Sequence record: OR544956
Length of the DNA: 64,000 bases
Reading direction: 5' to 3' (one strand)
DNA from: Escherichia phage vB_EcoM_EP57
Shown: piece by piece, positions 1 to 60,548 of the stretch
Layout of the letters: each line of letters opens with the position of its first letter
Numbering within the stretch: position 1 is the first letter of the stretch
Translations under genes and position numbers: made by a program
Notes under the pieces: model-generated
The model's database searches: none
Seen by the model: only the letters and a program-made list of their open reading frames with translations
Told to the model about the DNA's origin: nothing

Positions 1-47
1 TTTGTCGGTAGATAACTTGGTAGTATTTGTAGCAGTATTCGCAAGTT

Positions 48-686
48 TTGGTATTAAAAGCACACACTTGCAGCACAATAGGCACTTACTTGTTAAGTTT
101 GGGCTGGTATGTTAATATCTTCTTCGGTGCGGTCATCCTTTTCTGTGCAGCTAAAATGGTATTTGCTGGAGATAATGACGCAGAAGTTGATTACTCTAAA
201 CACTGGGCTACCCGTATTGTTCGTAAACTGTTCCCTGTATCTAATAAAATGGATGGGGAGAAGTTCTTCACAATCGAAAATGGTGTTCGTGTAGCAACTC
301 CAGCTTTGGTTTGCGTATTCGTGATGGAAATGGTGGATGTAATCTTTGCAGTAGATTCGGTTCCAGCGGTGATCGCAGTGACACAAGAACCCCTGCTTGT
401 ATTCTCTTCGATGTTATGTGCAATCTTAGGTCTACGTGCTCTGTTCTTTGTTCTTAGTGTCGCACTGAAGTATCTGGTTCACTTGGAGAAAGCAGTTATT
501 GTGGTTCTGGTGTTTGTAGGCGTTAAACTGATGTATCACCCGTTTGCAGAAACATTGCATGAGAAAATGAGTTTCCTGCCAGCACATATTGATCCAACTA
601 TTAGTATGTATATCGTGCTTGGTACTTTGGCCCTTGGTGTTATTGCAAGCTTTATCTTCCCTGAAAAAGAAGAAGCTACTGTTTAA
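48..686 (+). CDS. terC: TerC-family integral membrane protein, C-terminal part; the N-terminal part (LSVDNL motif) reads in another frame from position 2 and the gene starts upstream of the window
   Basis: Translation contains the second TerC signature VDVIFAVDSVPAVIAVT...FSSMLCAILGLRALFF; frame 2 at positions 2-112 reads LSVDNLVVFVAVFASFGIK; the two frames overlap at 48-115. Confidence 0.6.
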   Translation: MVLKAHTCSTIGTYLLSLGWYVNIFFGAVILFCAAKMVFAGDNDAEVDYSKHWATRIVRKLFPVSNKMDGEKFFTIENGVRVATPALVCVFVMEMVDVIFAVDSVPAVIAVTQEPLLVFSSMLCAILGLRALFFVLSVALKYLVHLEKAVIVVLVFVGVKLMYHPFAETLHEKMSFLPAHIDPTISMYIVLGTLALGVIASFIFPEKEEATV

Positions 687-692
687 TAAATG

Positions 693-717
693 AGCCTCCT
701 TCGGGAGGCTATTTTAT
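693..717 (+). terminator. Intrinsic terminator after terC
   Basis: agcctcc-ttcg-ggaggct hairpin followed by attttat. Confidence 0.5.
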
Positions 718-728
718 AGGAGAGACTT

Positions 729-1079
729 ATGAGTAATTTTGATGAAATTCAAGAACTTGTTTGGGATTTATCTGGTGATGTGGATTACATTTCAGATTAT
801 CTTTCAAAAGTTTACCCTGGGGTAAGCGTTATGATTGTGACCAAAGATCCAATTAATTTGCCTCCTAATGTTGTAGCTTGTTGTGGAAGTGGTTCAGGAG
901 AAGTAGAGCCTGTATCTCGTTGGGAATTAACTAAAGCTGTTTCAAAACGAAACGGTGAAGTTTTGAATATTGATATTGAGCAAATATGGACTTCTCCAGC
1001 AGCCAAATGGAATGATCCAAATGGTTGGGATTTGTTCTTCTGGGATAATGAGACTGATGATGAGGTGTTTTTAAAATGA
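729..1079 (+). CDS. Hypothetical protein
   Basis: ORF with ATG start preceded by ggagag; no recognisable motif. Confidence 0.4.
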   Translation: MSNFDEIQELVWDLSGDVDYISDYLSKVYPGVSVMIVTKDPINLPPNVVACCGSGSGEVEPVSRWELTKAVSKRNGEVLNIDIEQIWTSPAAKWNDPNGWDLFFWDNETDDEVFLK

Positions 1080-1146
1080 AATACTTGTTGGTTGTGTTTG
1101 AAAATATCTGTTTTGCAATAGGGTTGTTTGTTGTAATTTTTGTATT

Positions 1147-1175
1147 GACAAGCGTAATCAACGGCAGTAAAGTGA
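1147..1175 (+). promoter_or_regulatory. Candidate sigma70-like promoter (TTGACA-17-TAAAGT)
   Basis: TTGACA at 1147-1152 and TAAAGT 17 nt downstream, upstream of the lipoprotein gene. Confidence 0.3.
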
Positions 1176-1262
1176 GTTTATACCGAGATGGAGAGCAACT
1201 TTATTGCTTCTCTGGAGATTTCAAACACAGATGTATTAATAGCCAAAACGAGGAAAGCAAAT

Positions 1263-1700
1263 ATGAAAAAACTAGCCCTGATTTTAATTGGTTGTATCTT
1301 TTTAACAGCTTGCGAGGATGAAACAAATCCTGCACAATACCAACAACCTCCTCAACAATACGCTCAACAAGGATCTGACGGAGATACAACTATTATCAAC
1401 AATGGTGGCGGTTCTAGTAGTAGCGGTGTTGGTGAGTTTGCTACAGGTATGTTGTTAGGGCATATGATGAGTGGCGGTAGTAATCGTAGCAGTGGGGATT
1501 ATAACGATAACAGAACGATTATTAATAAGCATTATAATACACCTAAACCGAAAACTAATTTTTATGGTAAGCCTAAACAAGAGATAAAAACTTATGAAAA
1601 GCCGAGACAAACTTTTAAAACAAATAGTAGCTATACAACTCGTAAATCTTACAATAGCCCTTTAAGTAAAAAGAGTTCATCTCGTAGCAAGCGACGTTAA
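1263..1700 (+). CDS. Putative lipoprotein (signal peptide with lipobox LTAC, Gly/Ser-rich, basic C-terminus)
   Basis: Internal ATG at 1263 preceded by gaggaaag; MKKLALILIGCIFLTAC; the track ORF 1188..1700 is the same frame with an earlier start. Confidence 0.5.
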   Translation: MKKLALILIGCIFLTACEDETNPAQYQQPPQQYAQQGSDGDTTIINNGGGSSSSGVGEFATGMLLGHMMSGGSNRSSGDYNDNRTIINKHYNTPKPKTNFYGKPKQEIKTYEKPRQTFKTNSSYTTRKSYNSPLSKKSSSRSKRR

Positions 1701-1714
1701 TAAGGAGAAAAACA

Positions 1715-2308
1715 ATGACAATTTCTATTCGTACTTCCATCGTAGGTGTTAAAAGGTTGCCTAATGCTTTGCAAATCACACGCGCTTTGAGGGATACATT
1801 CTCTGCTGTGGACGAGCATAAGATGCTTGATAATCTTTCAAATTGGCCCTATTTCCATTATTTTAAAAATGAAGATGACGAGTTTATAGACGCTGTTTCT
1901 TATGGTTATGATTTCGGTAAGGAGGTTTCTGCTGAAGAATTTGTAGCTATGGTGTTCCCAAACGGTTTGCCTACTCGCAGTAAACGTAAAAAAGGACCAA
2001 AAAACAAGAAACGTGCTACTAATAAAGCTACCATTTTCTTTACTGATGGCACACAATATACGATTAAAGATTTTGAAGAGGTATCTTATACAGCAGGTGG
2101 GAATCTTTCTTTCTACACCATCAAAAAACAAAACTCTACGTTCAGCCATGTTTCTAACATGATTGAAATGTTAGTAGAAGATATTGAAAGCGTAGCTGTG
2201 TTAGGTATGCATAAAAGCTTTTTAATTACAAATATTTCAGATTTCAGTGCAAGTTTATCTGGCCCTGATTTTGAAGCCACGACCACGCATTTCGCTTTTA
2301 AGGTGTAA
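1715..2308 (+). CDS. Hypothetical protein
   Basis: ORF with aggagaaaaacaATG ribosome-binding context. Confidence 0.45.
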   Translation: MTISIRTSIVGVKRLPNALQITRALRDTFSAVDEHKMLDNLSNWPYFHYFKNEDDEFIDAVSYGYDFGKEVSAEEFVAMVFPNGLPTRSKRKKGPKNKKRATNKATIFFTDGTQYTIKDFEEVSYTAGGNLSFYTIKKQNSTFSHVSNMIEMLVEDIESVAVLGMHKSFLITNISDFSASLSGPDFEATTTHFAFKV

Positions 2309-2311
2309 GTT

Positions 2312-2902
2312 ATGCATACCGAGAGAGACTTGCAACTCTTGTGGTGGGAAGTGATGCAGGAAATAAAAGAAGATTTTCCTGTTTACTACAACATGTTACG
2401 TGAAGCAGGATATAAAGCTTGTGTTAGAAACAAAGTGAATAACTCTTTCGGTTGGTGCAACTACCGAGATAAAATTGTTGTTGTAAATTGGCACTTGCAT
2501 AAGAACTCCACAAGAGATATGATCGTGGATACAATGAAGCACGAAATTGCTCATGCTATTGATGGTTGTATGGGTAAGTTTAGTAGGCACGGTGCTCATT
2601 GGCAAAAACTGGCAGCAGAATTAGGGGCTAATCCTAAAGCCACTTCCAAAGAGCCGTTGAACCACGAATATAAATATGTTCTTGTTCTGGTAGATAGGTT
2701 TGCGACAAGATGTGTTAGAGGTTATAATCGTAAACCTAATCGCATGTACCCAGGTAAGCAACCTAATATGTGGTTGAAATCAGATAAAGAAGGGACCGAA
2801 GGAAAATTATGGTTGTATAAATGGGACGATTGGGTTAAAGTAGCTAAAGAGTACGGTGTTTCACCATATATAAGAGATGCAGAAGAGGAGAATGAAGAAT
2901 GA
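2312..2902 (+). CDS. SprT-like zinc metallopeptidase domain protein (putative)
   Basis: HEIAH motif in a context (KHEIAHAIDGCMGKFSRHGAHW) resembling SprT-family proteins. Confidence 0.4.
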   Translation: MHTERDLQLLWWEVMQEIKEDFPVYYNMLREAGYKACVRNKVNNSFGWCNYRDKIVVVNWHLHKNSTRDMIVDTMKHEIAHAIDGCMGKFSRHGAHWQKLAAELGANPKATSKEPLNHEYKYVLVLVDRFATRCVRGYNRKPNRMYPGKQPNMWLKSDKEGTEGKLWLYKWDDWVKVAKEYGVSPYIRDAEEENEE

Positions 2903-4011
2903 CAAGTCCATTTTTAAAAGCAGCTACTGGTGGTCAGAAGAAGCCTGAAATGAGCGTATTTGCTGCAACAACAGATGCAAGTAAATCTGTATTCGCTCCA
3001 AGCGTGTTAGATGCCAGTCCTGTTTATGCACCAGCGGCACCGCAAGAAGTTCCAGTTTTGCCTTCTATGACCCGACAAGAGATCGAAGAGATTGGGGCAG
3101 AGGCAGGAACAACCTTGCGTTCCTTGAATGCCGAGGTATTAAAACATCAACGTAGTAATCAAGGCGATCAGATGAGTGAACGACTCACAGCTTTGATTAA
3201 ACAGGCAAAACAACTTGATCCAAACTCTATTAAACAAAGCAAGGGTATTACTAAACTCATTAAAAAAGTTATGGGTATGAAAGAAGACCTGTTTGGGGAG
3301 TTTGATAATGTTAATAACCGTATTGAAGAGTTGGTAAAGAACCTTCAAATGGATATTCGCAAAGAAGAAGATTCCTTGGTATATCTTGAAAAGCTACATC
3401 AAGCTATTGGACAATATGCTGCAAGTTTGAACCGAGATATGCAGCTTCTAACAGCAACCTATGAAAAAGAAGAACAAGCTTTGGCTGCTCTTCCAGAAGA
3501 TGCAGTAGAACAGCGACAAGTGATCCGAGATACTTTGGATCTTCTGGAGATTCGTATTGCAGATTTAAAAGCATTGCGCCTACTGTGTGTCCAAATGGGA
3601 CCGCGTGTACAAGGTATGCAAAAAGTTTCTGCAAGCTTAATGCGATCTGCGCGTAACATAGTAAATAATGTTATTCCTGCTTACTCTGCTAACTTCTCAA
3701 TGTATATAGAGAGCTTACGTCAAATGAAAGCAGCAGAGACGCAGAATAACGTTCTTGATGAATTTAACCTGGCAATTAAACTGGGTAGCGATCTTGCCAC
3801 ACAGAATCAGATCGAAGCAGCAGCACTGGCTAACCGTCAAGTGTTGGATATTGAAACTCTGCGTCACGATCAGGAAAACTTGGTTAAGATGTTGGAAGAA
3901 ACTAACCGCATCAATACGGAAGCCCGTGCTGCTCGTGTTGATTATATTAATGAAGTTCAATCTCTGGAAGACGGGATGGTAGCTGCTGTGAAACGAGGGC
4001 TTGGTAAATGA
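2899..4011 (+). CDS. TelA-like coiled-coil protein (putative toxic-anion-resistance family)
   Basis: 370 aa, coiled-coil rich; pattern LKALRLLCVQMGPRVQGMQKV ... LDIETLRHDQENLVKMLEE resembles TelA/KlaA family; sits inside a Ter-like gene cluster. Confidence 0.4.
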   Translation: MTSPFLKAATGGQKKPEMSVFAATTDASKSVFAPSVLDASPVYAPAAPQEVPVLPSMTRQEIEEIGAEAGTTLRSLNAEVLKHQRSNQGDQMSERLTALIKQAKQLDPNSIKQSKGITKLIKKVMGMKEDLFGEFDNVNNRIEELVKNLQMDIRKEEDSLVYLEKLHQAIGQYAASLNRDMQLLTATYEKEEQALAALPEDAVEQRQVIRDTLDLLEIRIADLKALRLLCVQMGPRVQGMQKVSASLMRSARNIVNNVIPAYSANFSMYIESLRQMKAAETQNNVLDEFNLAIKLGSDLATQNQIEAAALANRQVLDIETLRHDQENLVKMLEETNRINTEARAARVDYINEVQSLEDGMVAAVKRGLGK

Positions 4012-4545
4012 GAATCCGTATCTATATAATTGATGAAGACATTGGTGTCCGTTATGATGACGAAAAACGATTCGCACCGATGGGAGGTATATATCCCCCA
4101 AGTGTTCTAGCAGTTTGTCGTGATTGTTATATTTATGAAGGTTGTCGTAACTTCCGTAAATTCGAACTCCTTGCAGATATTGACTTCAATGAGGAGGAGG
4201 AGTAATGAAAATATTACGAGTGAATATTGAAACTGCTTGGTGTGGATGCAATGAGGTTGTGGATATCGAAATTGAAGATGATATGTCTCAAGAGGATATA
4301 GAAGATCTTGCGCACGAAACCTTTCAGGATTATTGTAATTACGGGTTCCATATTTTAGAGGAGGAAGAAGATGTTTAATTGACTCGACAGGAACTGATCA
4401 CAATCATTGAAGATGCTTTTATTGATGGCTGGAATACACAAGATAATGACTGGGGTGGACCCGAAGCTTTTCTGGAACATCATAAAACTTATGGAGACTC
4501 TTGTGAAACCACTGTAGCTCTTGATAATCTGAAGGAGGGTTTGTA

Positions 4546-15140: not shown

Positions 15141-17737
15141 TGAGTAAGTTTACATGGGATATTGAAGCAAACGGATTGTTGAATAATGACACTATTGATT
15201 ATTTAGCTAGTCCTTATCGTCTCAAAGACACATTTCAAATGCACTGTATTGTCTTAGAGAACCATGAAACAGGAGAAATAGTAGCTTTCCACGATGGCCC
15301 TAAATACATCTTTGATGGGCGTCCTTATGAAGAGTCAGATGGTAAATACACATATGTTCTTAAAGAGTATGTGGCGCAAGATTACACACATTTTCAACTA
15401 AAAGATTTCCCAGATTTTATTAATCATGAAGGTTATTTTAAAGATAAGCCTGAATATCTGGTTGAAATGGCTGTGGCTCACAACGGTATCAACTACGACT
15501 GGTTGGCTACAAAACTGTTTTATGGATTAGATTACAGTGTTAAATATAATACGTGGGGCAAAAATAAGGTAAAACTTATTGACTCCTTGATTTTGAGTAA
15601 AGTGTTAAACCCAGATCGAAAGATTGAGGGCAAATCAGGACATAGCTTGGCAGCACTTTCTCGAAAAGCAGGTGGTGATGTAAAAATAGATTTCCGTAAA
15701 GAGATTCCAGAAGAAGATCGATTTAAGACTTTTGCTGCGGATATGCTTTATTACTGTATCTATGACAACAAAGCCAATACGAGCGTATATAATTACCTTA
15801 TGGAAGAATGGGGTGATTATGATAAATGGGAAGGTCCATTTGAACTTGAACAACGTGTAGCAGACATTATTACACGTCAGGAACACCGTGGATTTGCTTT
15901 TAACATGAAACAAGCAGAAGAGAACCTTGCTTTTTTGGATGCAGAAATGGAGCGTCTTCGTTTACTCGTTGAGCCTATTTTGCCACCTAAACCAGCAACA
16001 AAAGGTTATCTTAAGGCTTTTATTCCACCTAAGTTGCAAATTAAAAAGAACTTAGAGCCAACTAACCATATGATCAATTTTGCTAAGAAACATGATGGTC
16101 ATTTGGAAGAGAGGGATGGCGATTGGTGGTTAGTTATGTTGGGGAAAGAGTGGAAACTGCCAGTTGCAGCAGATGAGCCTCTATGTGATCCTAACATCCC
16201 TGCAACATTGAACGATACAACCCATATTAAAAACTGGCTTGTAGGATTAGGTTGGGTACCGTCTGAATATAAAGATAAAGACTTGACGCTTAAATCTGGC
16301 ACCAAAATTAAAAAGAGCGAGGAAGAACTTCAGAAAGGTATTCGAGCTTACGTTGAGCAAACTCTATCTTCTAATTTTTGTCAGGATCGTTGTGATCATC
16401 TGGAGTGCACACCGGAAACCTTGGAAAGGAAGATTCAAGAGCGTATAGCAAAAGGTAAAGGTCGCGGTCTTAAAGTATTGACTAACCCGTGTTTTACCAA
16501 AGGTCAGGAAAAAGAAATTTGTCCTAACCTGCAAGCTTTGGGTGAGAAGTTTCCTTATGCTACACAGATTGTAGAATACTTAACGTATAAGCATCGTAGG
16601 AACTCTATTTTAGGTGGCGGTGCTGATTGGGAAGAAGATGAAGAAGATCAAGAATACGATAAAGGTTTCTTAGCCGCAGTAAGGGCGGATGGTCGTATTC
16701 CTACCCCAGCAGCTACATGTGATGCTGCAACCTCTCGTATGAAGCATAGGTCTGTAGCTAATATTCCTCGTGTCACATCTTTGTTTGGATGGGAGATGCG
16801 TAACTTGTTTGGTGTAGAGGTTCCTAAATACTTCCAGATTGGCTACGACTTCGACTCTTTGGAAGCAAAAATTGAATCACACTACTGTTGGCGGTACGAG
16901 CCGGAGCCACACGAATATTGTAACGCTCTGTTATTAGAGAAACCTAATGATGTTCACACAATGATGGCAAAACGTATCACTGAAACTATCGGACGTAAAT
17001 TTGAACGTAGTCCTGCTAAATCTGTTAAGTATGGTATTACCTATGGTGCACAAGCCGACAAGGTTGCTAAAACAATTGGTAGCGATAAGTTTACAGGTCA
17101 ATTGGTGTTCGATGCTTTCTGGGAAGCTGCATTCCCATTGGCGCGTCTTAAAGAACGTTTAAACGATTTCTGGGTTAAGACTGGTAAACAATATGTTTTG
17201 GGTATTGACGGTCGTAAGGTTCCTACTCGTTCTGCTCACGCGATTCTTAACTCTCTGTTCCAAAGCGGCGGGGTTATCTGTGCTAAACGTGCAATGGTTA
17301 TTTATGACGACATGATCGAAGAAGAAGGGCTAAGTGTTGACTTCTTTAAAGATGACTGGAAGAATAAAGATTTCGTGCAACAAATGATTGCATATCACGA
17401 TGAAGCCCAGCTTGAAGTTTCTCGTAACCTTGTAGAATTTAAATGGTTTTCACCTGAATCATTAGGTTGGAAGAAAGTAGACGATCCTGAAGAACAAAAG
17501 AAAATTGATAAAGAATGCCTTGCTAAAGTTGAAGAATGGAAGCATAATAAGGAAAAAGAGACGGGACAAATTTGGGCTAACATTCATGAATCTCCCAAAG
17601 GTGGATGGTTTACAGCCTATAGTCGGGCAGGTGAACTTGCTGCTTTAGCTGTTACTAAGGCTGGAGAATTTTACAATCTTAACGTTCAGCTTACTGCCGG
17701 ATATGATGTGGGTAACTCTTGGGCGTCCTGTCACTAG
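15140..17737 (+). CDS. DNA polymerase, family A (T7 gp5-like) with N-terminal 3'-5' exonuclease
   Basis: WDIEANGL exonuclease motif; C-terminus RSAHAILNSLFQSGG ... GNSWASCH resembles T7 gp5 (RSPHAALNTLLQSAG ... GPNWAICH); GTG start after aggagg. Confidence 0.85.
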   Translation: MSKFTWDIEANGLLNNDTIDYLASPYRLKDTFQMHCIVLENHETGEIVAFHDGPKYIFDGRPYEESDGKYTYVLKEYVAQDYTHFQLKDFPDFINHEGYFKDKPEYLVEMAVAHNGINYDWLATKLFYGLDYSVKYNTWGKNKVKLIDSLILSKVLNPDRKIEGKSGHSLAALSRKAGGDVKIDFRKEIPEEDRFKTFAADMLYYCIYDNKANTSVYNYLMEEWGDYDKWEGPFELEQRVADIITRQEHRGFAFNMKQAEENLAFLDAEMERLRLLVEPILPPKPATKGYLKAFIPPKLQIKKNLEPTNHMINFAKKHDGHLEERDGDWWLVMLGKEWKLPVAADEPLCDPNIPATLNDTTHIKNWLVGLGWVPSEYKDKDLTLKSGTKIKKSEEELQKGIRAYVEQTLSSNFCQDRCDHLECTPETLERKIQERIAKGKGRGLKVLTNPCFTKGQEKEICPNLQALGEKFPYATQIVEYLTYKHRRNSILGGGADWEEDEEDQEYDKGFLAAVRADGRIPTPAATCDAATSRMKHRSVANIPRVTSLFGWEMRNLFGVEVPKYFQIGYDFDSLEAKIESHYCWRYEPEPHEYCNALLLEKPNDVHTMMAKRITETIGRKFERSPAKSVKYGITYGAQADKVAKTIGSDKFTGQLVFDAFWEAAFPLARLKERLNDFWVKTGKQYVLGIDGRKVPTRSAHAILNSLFQSGGVICAKRAMVIYDDMIEEEGLSVDFFKDDWKNKDFVQQMIAYHDEAQLEVSRNLVEFKWFSPESLGWKKVDDPEEQKKIDKECLAKVEEWKHNKEKETGQIWANIHESPKGGWFTAYSRAGELAALAVTKAGEFYNLNVQLTAGYDVGNSWASCH

Positions 17738-38203: not shown

Positions 38204-40048
38204 TTAACCACCAGTGTTAGATTGTCCACTTAGAGTTGAAAGAGATAAACGTTGGAAAATGCTATTTCCGCTATTTTGAATTCTTGCATCAAGAATATTT
38301 CCAAACTCTGAAGAAGGGCTGATCGTAACTTTGATAAGATCACTTGGTATTGCTACCGTATTCTCAACAACAGGTTGATTACGAGCCAAACTTACATTAG
38401 GTGTATATGCCGACTGACGTAAATCTTCCAGAGGATTACCAAATCCAAAAGCACGTGTCCTTGTTTGTTCTCCTCTCCACATACGACCAATATCTTGTGT
38501 ATCAATACCTGTTAAATTGTACAACCAATCTGCTACAGGATTGCTGTCTCCACTTTGCGTTGCCTCGTATGCTTTTTGTGCTAAAGATTTATTAGGATCT
38601 GTGTCTTTAACGTTATCCAACCAAGAATCATCTTTAGGTAAGGCTTTCACAAAACCCTCTAAGAAGTGGTTCTGCATACCTTGACCTACAAGCTGAACTG
38701 TTGCAGCAAAACGAGTAAACTCTTTAGAAGCATCTATTTGTTCTTGAGTTAATGTTGCACCTGTTCTTTGAAGCATTTTCAATACTTCATTATACCCTTC
38801 GCCGTTTTTACTAAACATACGTTGGTAGTGCATAAGGTCATCACCAAGGTTTTCAAGAAGTCGCCCGATTTGAGCAGAGTTCATACCTCGACGCTCACCT
38901 TCATTAACAGTAGCCTGAATAAAAGCTAAAGGATCGTTCTGTAAAGGTTTAAGCTGTTCTGGATTCCATCCAAACAAGTTCATAATGTCATTTATGCCAT
39001 TATCACCGCCTTTCCACTTCCCTTCTTTCTCATTCCATTTTGAGGCTAAAACTGTATTACCAAGACGTTCACGAACGTCTTTAATATTATCTATTGACTT
39101 AATAATATTTGCAGAGTCTACACCGTTCTGTTCACCCCAAGCTGTCATCGCTAAAATAGAGTTGGCGTTTGTCTGAACGTTTTCAGCGCCACGACTTACA
39201 AGTTTAATTCTTTCGTTAGTATTCATCAACGTGTTACCAACTACAGAACCACCTGCAAACAGCCCAGCACCTATTAAAGAGGATGCAATCATGCGTGGAT
39301 TAAGACCTGCTGCACCTTCTTTTAATTGTCCATATCGACGATCACGATCACGTTTTTGTTGAGCTAATTCACGCTTACGGTTGCGTTCTATATCTCTAAG
39401 TTCACGATTTCGCATACGTATACGCATTTTAGCTTCTGCTTCTAGCTCTCTACGAATACGGCGACGACCGCGAACCTCGTCTTCTATTTCAGCATTCTTT
39501 TCACGATGAGATCTGCGTAAGGCATCTAACTGGTGAGCAAGAGCTTGGTTCATACGTTGAAGAGTTATTTCACCCTTTTTGTATTGCTCTACAGCTTTAC
39601 CCATAACGTCCCTAGCTTCTTGCATAGCCCCAGGACTGGCTTTACTAAATGCTCTTGCTCTGTAGTTAAAGTTCTGCAAACGAAGATTACCTAAATCTTC
39701 CCTACGTGCTGCTGCTTTAGCTTCGCGTTCAGCAGCTTTACGAGCTTTTTCTTCTTCTCTTCCTTGCGGGGTTTTAGGAGTTCTAGGTCTACCAGATCCG
39801 CCTACAGGAGCACCCGCTCCAGCGGGAGTAGGTGCTCGCATAGGTTTTTGACTTTGAGTTTGAGCTTTCTTAAGTTCACGCTCAATCTCTTTCATTTGTT
39901 GTCTAAACTTGGTCATGTTCATAGTGGGTTGCATTTTATTTGCAAACTTCTGAACACTCAACACGGCATCTTTTGCTTCCTTGAGACTGTTCTTGTCCAC
40001 CTTAAACGTAACCACGTTACTAATTTTGGAGGCGTTAATTTCTAACAA
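38204..40048 (-). CDS. Tail tape measure protein
   Basis: 614 aa, highly charged coiled-coil (RRELEAEAKMRIRMRNRELRDIERNRKRELAQQKRDRDRR), located after the tube and chaperone genes. Confidence 0.7.
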   Translation of the reverse strand: MLEINASKISNVVTFKVDKNSLKEAKDAVLSVQKFANKMQPTMNMTKFRQQMKEIERELKKAQTQSQKPMRAPTPAGAGAPVGGSGRPRTPKTPQGREEEKARKAAEREAKAAARREDLGNLRLQNFNYRARAFSKASPGAMQEARDVMGKAVEQYKKGEITLQRMNQALAHQLDALRRSHREKNAEIEDEVRGRRRIRRELEAEAKMRIRMRNRELRDIERNRKRELAQQKRDRDRRYGQLKEGAAGLNPRMIASSLIGAGLFAGGSVVGNTLMNTNERIKLVSRGAENVQTNANSILAMTAWGEQNGVDSANIIKSIDNIKDVRERLGNTVLASKWNEKEGKWKGGDNGINDIMNLFGWNPEQLKPLQNDPLAFIQATVNEGERRGMNSAQIGRLLENLGDDLMHYQRMFSKNGEGYNEVLKMLQRTGATLTQEQIDASKEFTRFAATVQLVGQGMQNHFLEGFVKALPKDDSWLDNVKDTDPNKSLAQKAYEATQSGDSNPVADWLYNLTGIDTQDIGRMWRGEQTRTRAFGFGNPLEDLRQSAYTPNVSLARNQPVVENTVAIPSDLIKVTISPSSEFGNILDARIQNSGNSIFQRLSLSTLSGQSNTGG

Positions 40049-53553: not shown

Positions 53554-53632
53554 TGGAGGCGGGAATTGGATTTGAACCAATGATCTCCAGCATATGAAAC
53601 TGGCGAGGACGACCAGACTCCTCTATCCCGCT
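53554..53632 (-). tRNA. tRNA with anticodon CAT (Met or Ile2)
   Basis: Manual fold: T-arm ATTGG-TTCAAAT-CCAAT, anticodon loop TTCATAT, CCA encoded; 1-72 is an A-C mismatch. Confidence 0.55.
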
Positions 53633-53638
53633 ATTATG

Positions 53639-53708
53639 TATCCCGTGCTGGATTCGAACCAGCATCACAATAAGCTGTGGAACTCTTATCCTGTAAGTCT
53701 AACGGGAA
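53639..53708 (-). tRNA. tRNA-like element, unassigned (anticodon arm cannot be folded; possibly degenerate)
   Basis: Good T-arm GCTGG-TTCGAAT-CCAGC and acceptor pairing, but only about 70 nt. Confidence 0.3.
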
Positions 53709-53710
53709 AC

Positions 53711-53784
53711 TGGTTGTTTCGACAAGAATCGAACTTGTGTCTCACGATTATCAGTCGTGGGTTCTACCATTGAACTACGAAACA
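53711..53784 (-). tRNA. tRNA-Ile (anticodon GAT)
   Basis: Perfect acceptor, T-arm and anticodon stem; loop CTGATAA; CCA encoded. Confidence 0.7.
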
Positions 53785-53790
53785 TTAAAT

Positions 53791-53867
53791 TGGTCGGAAT
53801 TGCAGGATTCGAACCTGCGACCCTACGCTCCCAAAGCGTATGCTCTACCAAACTGAGCTAAATTCCG
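53791..53867 (-). tRNA. tRNA-Pro (anticodon TGG)
   Basis: Perfect cloverleaf; anticodon loop TTTGGGA; CCA encoded. Confidence 0.7.
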
Positions 53868-53960
53868 TCATAACATTCTAAAGGTACACCGCAAAAGAAA
53901 GTGTTCGGCGGCTCCTCGTTTTTAACTTCACACTTGAGGTAGTGACTCACCTTTGTTATA

Positions 53961-54036
53961 TGGCTGGTCTGTCTGGATTTGAACCAAACCTACGACAGTC
54001 AAAGTGTCGTGTGCTACCGGACTACACTACAAACCA
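53961..54036 (-). tRNA. tRNA-Gln (anticodon TTG)
   Basis: Cloverleaf with anticodon loop CTTTGAC; CCA encoded. Confidence 0.65.
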
Positions 54037-54134
54037 ATAAATCATTTAATGAAGGGCAACCAGAAGAGGTGTGAGAGAAGGAGAAAACCATGAGTAAAAG
54101 AGAAAGTTTTCTGGCAACCCTTTATTAAATAATT

Positions 54135-54208
54135 TGGAGCGTTCTACGAGGATCGAACTCGTGCCGCCGACTTGGAAGGACGGAATGCTACCGCTACACC
54201 AAGAACGC
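54135..54208 (-). tRNA. tRNA-Gly (anticodon TCC)
   Basis: Acceptor GCGTTCT/AGAACGC, anticodon loop CTTCCAA; one mismatch in the anticodon stem. Confidence 0.55.
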
Positions 54209-54219
54209 CCTACATCTTT

Positions 54220-54249
54220 ACTATACTACATTTTACTATTGGTTGTCAA
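54220..54249 (-). promoter_or_regulatory. tRNA-operon promoter 1 (CTATTGACAA-18-TATAGT)
   Basis: Minus strand; -10 ends about 11 nt before the tRNA-Gly 5' end. Confidence 0.55.
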
Positions 54250-54524
54250 TAGTTTTATTGAGTGGGACAGTGACGAGTATCCCGTTGGGTGACTAGCCCT
54301 ACGTTCGGTAAGCTAACTTAAAATAATACAAAACCAAAGTCAAATATTATTCTTCGTTGCTGTCGATGGGAGAGCCGCTTCTCATTTTGCCCCATCCAAC
54401 CCTACTCCGGTCAAGTTTCGGGTAACTCTTTTTGTGTGATCAACACAATACTAAGAACACTGTCTTTCGAACAGACCTTGTGCACAGGATACGACGATCA
54501 ATCACAGTGCTCTTAATGTTGTGT

Positions 54525-54599
54525 TGGTGCTCCCACACTGAATCGAACAGAGATCCACGGATTACAAAACCGTTGTAATAGCCATTATACTATAGGAGC
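54525..54599 (-). tRNA. tRNA-Thr (anticodon TGT)
   Basis: Anticodon loop TTTGTAA; minor stem mismatches. Confidence 0.5.
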
Positions 54600-54605
54600 A
54601 AAGCT

Positions 54606-54682
54606 GGGACTCGGCAGGATTCGATACCTGCAATTCCAGAAGCCTCTTGGCGACTGGGGGTTTACCTTAACTCTACAAGTCC
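54606..54682 (-). tRNA. tRNA-like element, unassigned (T-arm near-identical to tRNA-Pro but with an 8-nt loop; no foldable anticodon arm)
   Basis: gcaggattcgatacctgc versus gcaggattcgaacctgc in tRNA-Pro. Confidence 0.3.
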
Positions 54683-54689
54683 ATAATTC

Positions 54690-54775
54690 TGGCGATGAGT
54701 ATAGGATTTGAACCTATATCGTTCTTTCGAACACGGATTAACAGTCCGCCGCTTAAACCATTCAGCCAACTCATC
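54690..54775 (-). tRNA. Class II (long variable arm) tRNA with anticodon GTT
   Basis: Perfect acceptor GATGAGT/ACTCATC, T-arm ATAGG-TTCAAAT-CCTAT, extra arm GTTC-GAAA-GAAC, anticodon loop CTGTTAA. Confidence 0.45.
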
Positions 54776-54781
54776 TTAATT

Positions 54782-54869
54782 TGGTGGTGAGTGATGGAGT
54801 TGAACCACCCGAATCGCAATGATAACAGATTTACAGTCTGCCCCGCTACCCCTACGGAATTAACTCACC
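54782..54869 (-). tRNA. tRNA-Tyr (anticodon GTA), class II
   Basis: Anticodon arm CAGA-CTGTAAA-TCTG as in E. coli tRNA-Tyr; 88 nt. Confidence 0.6.
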
Positions 54870-54947
54870 TAAATACTAATATTTAAATTCTTTTTAAAAT
54901 AGCCAGTGTTCACACCACTAACTATGTAAGCCATATTAAAAAGAACT

Positions 54948-55033
54948 TGGCGGTAGATGTAGGACTCGAACCTACACGCCGTTTCCGACTACAGTTTAGC
55001 AAACTGTCGTGGCTACCATTTCACCAATCTACC
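54948..55033 (-). tRNA. tRNA-Ser (anticodon GCT), class II
   Basis: Anticodon arm ACAGT-TTGCTAA-ACTGT; long variable arm. Confidence 0.65.
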
Positions 55034-55038
55034 TAATC

Positions 55039-55129
55039 TGGCGGAAGGAGGGAGAGTCGAACTCCCAAGGCTCTTTCAAGCTCGGCGGTTTTCAAGACCG
55101 TTTTCGTCGCCACGTCGATTTGCCCTTCC
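55039..55129 (-). tRNA. tRNA-Ser (anticodon TGA), class II
   Basis: Anticodon loop CTTGAAA; long variable arm; 91 nt. Confidence 0.55.
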
Positions 55130-55137
55130 ATACTTAT

Positions 55138-55167
55138 AATCTAACATAAAATAATGTTTGTTGTCAA
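55138..55167 (-). promoter_or_regulatory. tRNA-operon promoter 2 (CTATTGACAA-18-TAGATT)
   Basis: Minus strand; -10 ends about 9 nt before the tRNA-Ser(TGA) 5' end. Confidence 0.5.
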
Positions 55168-55363
55168 TAGTTTTTTAAAACATTTTACCATGAATGGTGA
55201 CTCCACCAACCCCCGTTCTCCACGAACGGTGCTCTTCGAGCATTTATGTCTTCTAATATAACCGTGGCCTTTGTTTATAATGTCTGACATACTTGCCTCA
55301 TTCTCTGCCACCATGATCAGTAGTGGGTTCAAATTACTTGAGCTAATTCATGTTAAAATGTTC

Positions 55364-55438
55364 TGGTGTCTTTACAAGGAATCGAACCTTGACTAAGAGT
55401 TTAGAAGACTCCTGTGCTATCCATTACACCATAAAGAC
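55364..55438 (-). tRNA. tRNA-Arg (anticodon TCT)
   Basis: Anticodon loop CTTCTAA; acceptor GTCTTTA/TAAAGAC. Confidence 0.6.
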
Positions 55439-55440
55439 GT

Positions 55441-55515
55441 TGGTGGCCCTGGCTGGTTTCGATCCAGCTACCTATCGGTTATGAGCCGACAGCTCTCCCA
55501 TTGAGCTACAGGGCC
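55441..55515 (-). tRNA. tRNA with anticodon CAT (Met or Ile2), second copy
   Basis: Acceptor GGCCCTG/CAGGGCC, D-stem GCTC/GAGC, anticodon loop CTCATAA. Confidence 0.6.
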
Positions 55516-56915: not shown

Positions 56916-57332
56916 ATGAGATTTACAAGACAAGAGGTAGTTGTACTTGACGAAGCAATGACAATGATCGTCTTTTACTATGAGGATATCTTCTGTGCAG
57001 CATATCATTTAAATGATATTCAGATTGAATGGAAGCAGATAGCATTCCTGTTGGACAAGAGTAATCATTTGGATGGCTTTGAGTATTTGGAGTGGGATGG
57101 TGCAAAGGAAGTTAAAATTGTAGGGTTAAATCACGATCAGATTGTTGACATGCAATGTAAGTTGTGTCATTATCAGTTCTCAAACAATCCTGGCAACAAT
57201 TGTTCTGATTTTTGCCATGTGTGTGGTTCACGATGTTCTGGTAAGCTACTTTTGAAGACACAAGATGTGTCCTACAGCCGTGTTACGCTTACTGGCGACC
57301 ATACCCCAATCATGGAGTACGTAAAGAAATGA
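56916..57332 (+). CDS. Cys-rich hypothetical protein
   Basis: CKLCHY ... CHVCGSRC; taggaggctagaATG. Confidence 0.4.
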   Translation: MRFTRQEVVVLDEAMTMIVFYYEDIFCAAYHLNDIQIEWKQIAFLLDKSNHLDGFEYLEWDGAKEVKIVGLNHDQIVDMQCKLCHYQFSNNPGNNCSDFCHVCGSRCSGKLLLKTQDVSYSRVTLTGDHTPIMEYVKK

Positions 57333-58132
57333 GCAACTATCCAATTACAGGCGTAACCTATTCTTGTGTAGCAAAAGGTGGTTTATATACAGTAGTGGAA
57401 TTTCCAAAACCTGCCGGAATATCTAAAGTGTTTGATCCTGTGGTTATCTATGAAGATCTTAGAACAGGTCAACGTTACTGGAGATTTGTGAATGACTTTT
57501 TAGATCGTATGGAGGTAGTAAGTGGCGAAAACACCGAAGAAGTTATCAAAGCCAACGTTACTAAGAAACCGAAAAACGAGGTTCTCAAAGTAGCCAAATC
57601 AGTTCCTAAGAAAGATAAATTTGATACGGAGGCATTCGTCTTTGACACACCAATCGAGAAGATTGAAGAAGCGTTGCAACGTCTTGAGGAGCAGGAGGCA
57701 GATCCAATGGCTGAACCACTCGCTGAAGCAAAAAACATTGGTCGTTCCAATGAAACAACACCAGAAGAACAAGCTGAACTTGAAGCTTTTGCCAAATGGA
57801 CAAAACAGTTAAAGAATGGCTATTATAAAACAAAAGAAGAAGCTGAAAACCATGTTCCTTCCACACCAATGAAATGCCAGGATTATAAAGATTATCCTGA
57901 AAGGGTTGTGTTCCCTGGTTATGCACAATACAAACTGAACGGGTTACGTTCTATGATTAACATGAAAGGAGAGTGTTTATCAAAAGCTGGGGAAGTGTAC
58001 AACCTGCCACCTCATTGGAAAGGTATTCCAAACTTTATTAGTGAAGTTGTTGGTCATCCTCTTGATGGTGAAGTGTTTGCTGGGTTAGGTGTCCTTAGTC
58101 TGCAACAAATTAACAGTGCTTGCAGTAGTTGA
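57329..58132 (+). CDS. ATP-dependent DNA ligase-like protein, N-terminal and adenylation part; frame changes near 58090-58130
   Basis: Motif I-like YKLNGLR (KxDG-type with N in place of D) and motif III-like LDGEVFA. Confidence 0.45.
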   Translation: MSNYPITGVTYSCVAKGGLYTVVEFPKPAGISKVFDPVVIYEDLRTGQRYWRFVNDFLDRMEVVSGENTEEVIKANVTKKPKNEVLKVAKSVPKKDKFDTEAFVFDTPIEKIEEALQRLEEQEADPMAEPLAEAKNIGRSNETTPEEQAELEAFAKWTKQLKNGYYKTKEEAENHVPSTPMKCQDYKDYPERVVFPGYAQYKLNGLRSMINMKGECLSKAGEVYNLPPHWKGIPNFISEVVGHPLDGEVFAGLGVLSLQQINSACSS

Positions 58133-59607: not shown

Positions 59608-60486
59608 ATGTTTGTAAAATCTTTTAAATCCGCTCTGCCTATGGTTGTTGGTGACAATGCTTCTGTAGCATCCCTTAACAGCATTACAGATATTCCTCTG
59701 GAATTTGTAACAGCAGAAGGCTCCCAGTCACACACTATTGGTCTTGTTCGTTTTGAAGATGACTCTAAATTTGTAAAAGAGTTCTCAGATCTTGAACTGC
59801 TTAATGTAGGTCAATCTGTGAAGAAGGTAGATAAAAAGAAAGTTAAACGTATTCTGAATGAACGTCTAGAAGAAATGCGTCAGGACATGGAGAGCGAAGG
59901 TAAAGAGTTTTATGTCGATAAAGAAGTAGTCAAAGCAATGAAGGAAGATATTGAATTTGCACTATTGCCTGAAACAGAACCTGAAGATTTCTTTAACTAT
60001 GTTGTCTTGGATAAAACTACGAATCTTCTTTATGTTCTTAATGGAAGTAAAAAGGTTGCAGAAGAGATTACTTCTTTCCTCCGTTCCGTTCTGGGGACTT
60101 TCCCTTCGGTAGGTTTTAGTGTGCATGAAGAAGCTATTGTAAAAGGTTTTGGTGAATTGCTGGAGAATCACGAAGCAGATCGTATTACTCTCGGAAATTA
60201 TATCAAAATGGAGGATAGCGAGGGCGTTGTTGTTTGGAGTAAAGAATCCCTATACGAGTCTAAAGCTGTCGAACTAAAAGAAGATGGTAAAGATGTTGTT
60301 GCAATCGGTCTTGAATATGACGGTGTTGTAGATTTTGTAGTGGATAAAGAGTTTAAACTTTCTAAACTACGTTTTCCGAAATATTTTGCAGACGAAGAAG
60401 GTAGTATTGAAGCTTCAGTCCTTCTGTGCTTCAATGAGATTCGAGGTCTGATGGAAGATTTAACCAAAGCAACAATCCTTAAATAA
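59608..60486 (+). CDS. RdgC-like recombination-associated protein
   Basis: About 290 aa; pattern resembling E. coli RdgC in the C-terminal half. Confidence 0.4.
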   Translation: MFVKSFKSALPMVVGDNASVASLNSITDIPLEFVTAEGSQSHTIGLVRFEDDSKFVKEFSDLELLNVGQSVKKVDKKKVKRILNERLEEMRQDMESEGKEFYVDKEVVKAMKEDIEFALLPETEPEDFFNYVVLDKTTNLLYVLNGSKKVAEEITSFLRSVLGTFPSVGFSVHEEAIVKGFGELLENHEADRITLGNYIKMEDSEGVVVWSKESLYESKAVELKEDGKDVVAIGLEYDGVVDFVVDKEFKLSKLRFPKYFADEEGSIEASVLLCFNEIRGLMEDLTKATILK

Positions 60487-60490
60487 GTTC

Positions 60491-60519
60491 TTGACTTGCG
60501 GGATTAGTTATGATATTAT
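60491..60519 (+). promoter_or_regulatory. Sigma70-type promoter (TTGACT-17-TATTAT)
   Basis: Near-consensus boxes, then aggagg and the ATG at 60559. Confidence 0.5.
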
Positions 60520-60548
60520 GCCTACCTACTTAATGAGGTAGGCTTTTT
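60520..60548 (+). terminator. Intrinsic terminator overlapping the promoter-proximal region (GCCTACCT ... AGGTAGGC then TTTTT)
   Basis: 8-bp stem followed by a T-run. Confidence 0.45.

Follow-up and report, generated by a model that had tools for sequence, protein, structure and literature searches.

The stretch of DNA analysed here (the window, 64,000 nucleotides from Escherichia phage vB_EcoM_EP57, sequence record OR544956) begins inside a terC gene, the first 78 of whose 324 codons lie upstream of it. As far as position 78, TerC is read in frame 2; at position 79 the reading passes to frame 3 (Table 1). In the 5′ part, the codons start at positions 2, 5 and so on, and the first of the two conserved acidic/polar TerC motifs, SVDN, lies within it, while the second, DSVPAV, sits in the 3′ part. 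Both motifs are kept in the window and align with those of distant phage homologs, but they stand in different frames. Within the longer of the two mechanical open reading frames (ORFs), positions 48-80 are not TerC sequence in frame 3, and the first in-frame ATG of the 3′ part of the gene is at 156-158; its use as a restart codon is a conjecture. Downstream of terC, the proteins encoded in the undamaged region have exact matches in two relatives, Dompiswa phage TSP7_1 and Escherichia phage tuntematon.

The sequence-only reading had placed a change of the terC reading frame at 48-115. That the frame changes is borne out, both halves being true TerC as judged by profile matches and by codon identity to relatives. 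The interval itself corresponds to the overlap of the two mechanical ORFs, but the breakpoint lies between positions 78 and 79.

Table 1. Features of the window around terC and the other places where bases of the related genomes are missing; the names of the genes hit come from RefSeq
Feature	Position	Strand	Details
ORF in frame 2	2..115	+	translation (L)SVDNLVVFVAVFASFGIKSTHLQHNRHLLVKFGLVC*
ORF in frame 3	48..686	+	translation ...GTYLLSLGWYVNIFFGAVILF...EKEEATV*; bulk of TerC
terC 5′ of the break	1..78	+	codons 79-103 and the first two bases of codon 104
Deletion junction	78..79	+	56 nt of relatives missing; TSP7_1 version AATTCTACTTTGGGGTATTGCAGGTGCGATTGTCTTCCGAGGTGTGTTTGTAGCGG
Out-of-frame tail	79..115	+	K104N, then RHLLVKFGLVC; TAA at 113-115
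terC 3′ of the break	81..686	+	residues 124-324 (GTYLLSLGWYVN...EKEEATV), frame 3; stop 684-686
Undamaged region 3′ of terC	729..4011	+	conserved hypothetical genes, SprT-like gene, TelA-like gene
SprT-like gene	2312-2902	+	from gene tables and Pfam labels of ten public contigs
TelA-like "tellurite resistance" gene	2899-4011	+	PHROG 5890, E=1.5e-139
Other deletion junctions (1)	8318, 13519, 18526/7, 20245/6, 22476/7, 24996, 25754/5, 26585/6, 27912/3, 29146/7, 29549/50, 31908
Other deletion junctions (2)	32394, 33614, 34401, 38604/5, 41109, 43405/6, 43529, 52056, 54925/6, 56503, 56823
Other deletion junctions (3)	57184/5, 57251/2, 57554, 57721/2, 58121/2, 59538, 62032, 63004/5
Frame-breaking gap, primase/helicase	13519		7 nt
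Frame-breaking gap, nucleotidyltransferase
Frame-breaking gap, tail protein gp128
Frame-breaking gap, colanic-acid-degrading tail protein
Frame-breaking gap, baseplate wedge			110 nt
Frame-breaking gaps, tail fibre gp142			25, 17 and 19 nt
Frame-breaking gap, virion structural protein			28 nt
Frame-breaking gap, minor head protein
Frame-breaking gap, DNA ligase			107 nt; first 46 codons also lost
In-frame gap, tape measure protein			144 nt
In-frame gap, tail fibre gp129			486 nt

A megablast comparison of window positions 1-3000 with 50,697 phage records gave TSP7_1 (MW175890, 100.0% identity) and tuntematon (MN850618, 99.8%) as the best matches, each in two pieces that together take up 3056 record bases per 3000 window bases. 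The alignment to TSP7_1 holds one clean 56-nt gap between positions 78 and 79, without microhomology, and otherwise no difference and no 1-nt change; the alignment to tuntematon shows a clean 56-nt gap at the same place. The 56 nt are kept in all 11 of the 11 closest records; in TSP7_1 they occupy about positions 60473-60528 of MW175890. They code for residues 105-123, ILLWGIAGAIVFRGVFVAV, a hydrophobic stretch of the 324-amino-acid TerC that the intact 975-nt gene encodes, and since 56 leaves a remainder of 2 when divided by 3, their absence moves the reading from frame 2 to frame 3. The part in front of the break is 100% identical to TSP7_1 and tuntematon and matches codons 79-104 of their intact terC base for base. 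Of the two causes offered by the sequence-only reading, a disrupted gene is thus the right description of the sequence as given, with 56 nt missing at this point, whereas a single-base insertion is contradicted by both alignments. The predicted product of the deleted gene would be 115 amino acids long instead of 324, with 103 native residues, the change K104N and 11 out-of-frame residues, a reconstruction made from the TSP7_1 sequence that assumes an upstream part like that of the relatives.

The frame-3 part is recognized by the family profiles. It matches Pfam TerC PF03741 with E=9.4e-22 over profile positions 49-177 (78 bits, cut-off 27.8), PHROG 7180 with E=4.9e-61 and TIGR03718, the NCBIfam "TerC/Alx family metal homeostasis membrane protein", with E=3.3e-56 over profile positions 118-302. 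On this last profile it scores 191 bits, below the curated cut-off of 246.4 bits, while the TerC of an intact relative passes both cut-offs with 133 bits on PF03741 and 319 bits on TIGR03718. The frame-2 part is too short for profile scoring by itself. These frame-3 matches, together with the identity of the frame-2 part to intact terC, show that this is no chance effect. No single uninterrupted frame spans all the TerC hydrophobic stretches in the window, residues 105-123 being gone, and on the profile and alignment evidence the window terC would belong to the TerC/Alx family by descent, though it is no intact member. In Phapecoctavirus and related genomes, the intact gene goes by the names "integral membrane protein TerC", "alx" or "tellurium resistance protein". 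An Rfam scan upstream of the intact TSP7_1 terC found no riboswitch or other element, and a literature search for TerC together with phAPEC8 found no paper.

Homologs were compared at increasing distance. A sensitive blastn search with the intact 361-nt terC region matched 145 phage records, and all 60 of the 60 phage records among the matches listed align in one piece, the record span being equal to the query span. The Yersinia and Pectobacterium phages, which are the most distant nucleotide matches at 85-90% identity, align only over about query positions 132-199, and this is the segment deleted in the window. By these alignments, the segment missing from the window is the best-conserved and least variable stretch of phage terC. 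At the protein level, tblastn with the intact protein matched 176 phage records, 170 of them in one uninterrupted piece over at least 80% of TerC. An intact 324-amino-acid TerC was likewise found in all ten public contigs among those listed (23 were read, chosen because they carry the neighbouring 116-amino-acid gene). In a protein alignment, the TerC of Cronobacter phage A24, Vibrio phage BUCT194 and Brevundimonas phage Papperlapapp (45-50% identity) keep the pattern QH-(I/V)L-WGI-GA(I/L)(V/I)FR-(I/V)FV across the gap. Neither two separate genes, an arrangement that would have counted against the sequence-only reading, nor a frame change at terC was found among the homologs compared, and this excludes both programmed frameshifting and a gain of the 56 nt by the relatives. 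Such a gain, as an insertion or a mobile mini-element, is also rejected by the nature of the segment, which codes for the most conserved part of TerC and is present in distant phages.

The 5′ half of terC in the window (positions 1-354) is in addition a recombination boundary within the genus. In megablast, the match of the ESCO13-type phages to the window does not begin before position 187 or 354. At the protein level, TerC is 73% identical in these phages, compared with 95-96% in Justusliebigvirus.

The loss in terC is not the only one in the window. The window was compared with tuntematon over its whole length, with TSP7_1 over 1-42.8 kb and with phAPEC8 over about 38.9-64 kb. In each of the twelve closest records listed, a stretch of 25,000 window bases takes up 28,300-31,300 bases. 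About 32 private deletions of 2-4044 nt, 10.6 kb in total, are shared by no reference genome compared, and each is reproduced against tuntematon and against the second reference for its region (TSP7_1 or phAPEC8). Seventeen gaps are of at least 51 nt (56, 91, 1090, 486, 281, 1247, 110, 2227, 73, 144, 152, 51, 63, 135, 4044, 107 and 65 nt), and 15 are of 2-38 nt (2, 2, 4, 4, 6, 6, 6, 7, 12, 17, 19, 20, 25, 28 and 38 nt). The sole real insertion in the window has 3 nt (4191-4193). Multiples of three account for 10 of the 32 deletions, which is the chance expectation, the other 22 are not divisible by three and none is of 1 nt. Most of the 31 deletions besides that in terC are out of frame and within genes. 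The 17 larger junctions have 0-4 nt of microhomology, no more than chance would give; replication slippage between repeats is rejected on this ground and on the absence of microhomology at the terC break relative to TSP7_1. As a natural comparison, tuntematon and TSP7_1 over the same about 50 kb differ from each other only by a small number of replacement-type changes, a 730-nt insertion and an indel of 3 nt, and by no small out-of-frame deletion.

The five largest gaps, of 1090 nt (20245/6), 486 nt (22476/7), 1247 nt (26585/6), 2227 nt (29146/7) and 4044 nt (57721/2), enclose modules that are hypervariable among the relatives, with a non-identical fraction of 0.24-0.89 against a background median of 0.01. 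The modules are C-terminal parts of tail proteins and tail fibres and a block of early genes that includes an HNH endonuclease. Among the smaller gaps there is little bias to hypervariable segments, and several of the lost segments, that of terC included, are highly conserved.

Several other loci of the window deserve a record. At 57329-58132, the 4044-nt gap fuses codon 68 of a "transposase-like" gene (tuntematon gp175) in frame to codon 47 of an ATP-dependent DNA ligase; the resulting artificial ORF of 267 amino acids is broken in turn by the 107-nt gap between 58121 and 58122. The minus strand of 53554-55515 carries ten tRNA genes (Met, Ile, Pro, Gln, Gly, Thr, Asn, Ser, Arg and Met), and the 51-nt gap at 54925/6 falls within the spacer between tRNA-Asn and tRNA-Ser, where phAPEC8 has an annotated tRNA-Tyr and where ARAGORN makes no call in the window. 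In the DNA polymerase I gene, at 16884-16888, TSP7_1 has the 730-nt insertion relative to the window and tuntematon (3333 nt versus 2598 nt), which could be a mobile element or resemble an intein. Finally, 4378/4379 is a natural indel hotspot, with 223 nt in tuntematon and 28 nt in TSP7_1 that are both absent from the window; the small gene adjoining it (gp102 of tuntematon) is 399 nt long in that phage and 204 nt long in TSP7_1.

Between the gaps, the window is a segment of a Phapecoctavirus (an Escherichia coli myovirus of the phAPEC8/tuntematon/TSP7_1 group), 99.2% identical to tuntematon. Its identity to TSP7_1 differs by region, from 98.8 to 100%, and the backbone is thus a mosaic; it also carries private clusters of substitutions, for example at 38396-38429. 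Relative to tuntematon, we counted 363 substitutions with 290 transitions and 73 transversions (~4:1). Of these, 326 fall in long ORFs, where 279 (86%) are synonymous and 47 non-synonymous and where 84% are at the third codon position. The underlying genome is thus that of a genuine Phapecoctavirus strain under purifying selection. Selection has not acted on the deletions at all, and their origin is either extremely recent or outside a living phage. In terC, the flanks of the break have zero substitutions relative to the intact TSP7_1 gene, hence no sign of decay. A natural pseudogene or decaying accessory gene would be expected to have a lesion that recurs in independent sequences, signs of relaxed selection, or both, and neither is seen here.

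Searches for the break elsewhere gave a consistent picture. The 30-mer across the terC junction has a single occurrence in the window and is absent from IMG/VR, from JGI metagenome contigs and from GTDB genome contigs, and the junction is also absent from the closest INPHARED records. Exact look-ups of three window-specific proteins, truncated products such as the one starting at ATG 156 among them, gave no match, and a private 39-mer had no match in IMG/VR, JGI metagenomes or GTDB genomes. Complete E. coli genomes and PLSDB plasmids held nothing similar. None of the junctions tested is common to any other sequence. The strain backbone was not found either in INPHARED, IMG/VR, JGI metagenomes, GTDB genomes or the ENA/Logan/NCBI gene index. 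The private k-mers and proteins being unmatched, there is therefore no undamaged copy of the exact strain with which to compare the window.

Altogether, we regard the 56-nt gap in terC as most probably a defect of the sequence record and not of a living phage, the sequence having been corrupted, stitched or edited. This reading follows from the gap belonging to a set of about 32 deletions that only the window has, and on the same ground the interpretation moves from a single broken gene of interest to a sequence with defects all along it. An artefact would be expected to leave many private lesions that no viable phage could carry and that no relative has, and such lesions were found. Between positions 78 and 79, 56 bases of the most conserved core of terC are absent, with loss of a conserved hydrophobic stretch and a shift of frame, and terC as written would give the 115-amino-acid truncated product followed by an untranslated 3′ remnant. 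The candidate causes would be stretches lost in a reference-guided consensus, contig stitching or editing at a later stage, and under any of them an ordinary intact 324-amino-acid TerC would be expected in the phage itself.

The candidate causes fit the gaps to different degrees. The gaps over hypervariable modules fit a reference-guided consensus or contigs stitched without Ns, and this hints at a mapping or stitching drop-out as the origin of the five largest. A divergent terC patch that failed to map is unsupported, the deleted segment being the least variable part of the gene. Later editing fits the gaps in conserved segments and those of 2-7 nt at least as well as a drop-out of coverage does. 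No single technical mechanism accounts for every deletion.

For users of the record, the chief value of the terC break is as a warning about the whole window, in which ~10.6 kb are missing in 32 pieces. Frameshifts, split genes, fusions or a "missing domain" in these 64 kb are suspect, and tuntematon, TSP7_1 and phAPEC8 should be compared first.

A real deletion, in a defective or very recently damaged genome where terC is inactivated to a 115-amino-acid stump, is the alternative that survives best, and we hold it to be unlikely. It could take the form of a non-viable population variant, of packaged defective DNA or of a laboratory deletion series. The junction in terC is clean and unambiguous, the natural-looking substitutions point to the backbone of a real strain, and terC is plausibly a dispensable accessory gene, as PHROG classes it under "moron, auxiliary metabolic gene and host takeover". 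Against these points stand the broken reading frames of the primase/helicase, baseplate wedge, tail fibres, a structural protein and DNA ligase, because of which a phage with the window sequence could not, as predicted from these genes, propagate alone, that is, replicate or assemble. Moreover, multiples of three are not favoured among the deletions while the substitutions show strong purifying selection, the tested junctions recur nowhere else, and a terC without substitutions relative to TSP7_1 shows no decay. A Phapecoctavirus that is naturally terC-null, or a defective genome with many deletions that relies on a helper to propagate, is given a low probability. In that case, the conserved TerC/TelA accessory module would prove dispensable; a real deletion would otherwise show no more than that an accessory membrane-protein gene can be lost, which would be of minor interest.

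Two further explanations have next to no weight beside a faulty record. Programmed ribosomal frameshifting or recoding, by which one TerC would be made from two frames, is suggested by the fact that both overlapping frames carry TerC sequence, but we consider it extremely improbable: the 56 missing nt explain the shift fully, the 19 conserved residues could not be restored by any change of frame, relatives identical on both flanks read straight through in one frame, and neither a conserved two-frame arrangement nor a slippery site was found, the frame change being present in no homolog compared. One extra base would give a +1 frame change, but a single-base insertion or 1-nt sequencing error has a negligible chance in view of an alignment with one 56-nt gap, 100% identity on both sides and no 1-nt difference, of residues 105-123 that would still be missing after any one-base correction, and of the lack of any 1-nt deletion in the window.

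Compared with known systems, the likeness of the window terC to the programmed frameshifting of tail assembly chaperones of the G/GT type is superficial and consists in two overlapping frames that hold parts of one family. Unlike in those genes, the shift in the window is not conserved and calls for no slippery site, and a conserved stretch has been lost here, not bridged. In assembly and consensus artefacts, unresolved stretches are dropped instead of being written as N, and the window resembles them in its loss in one direction only, at many sites, with codon phase ignored and with the five largest losses on hypervariable modules. It differs from them in that its terC segment and others are highly conserved and in that losses of 2-7 nt are atypical of coverage gaps. 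Another close counterpart is the TerC/Alx gene of Phapecoctavirus itself (TSP7_1 QPX72153.1; tuntematon QHR71949.1, gp93). On either side of the break, the window matches TSP7_1 without a difference, and it has the same gene order of terC, small hypothetical genes, the SprT-like gene and the TelA-like gene, the difference being that its copy is without the 56 nt for residues 105-123 and is frameshifted. The intact gene is a standard member of the TerC/Alx family, with no new biology here.
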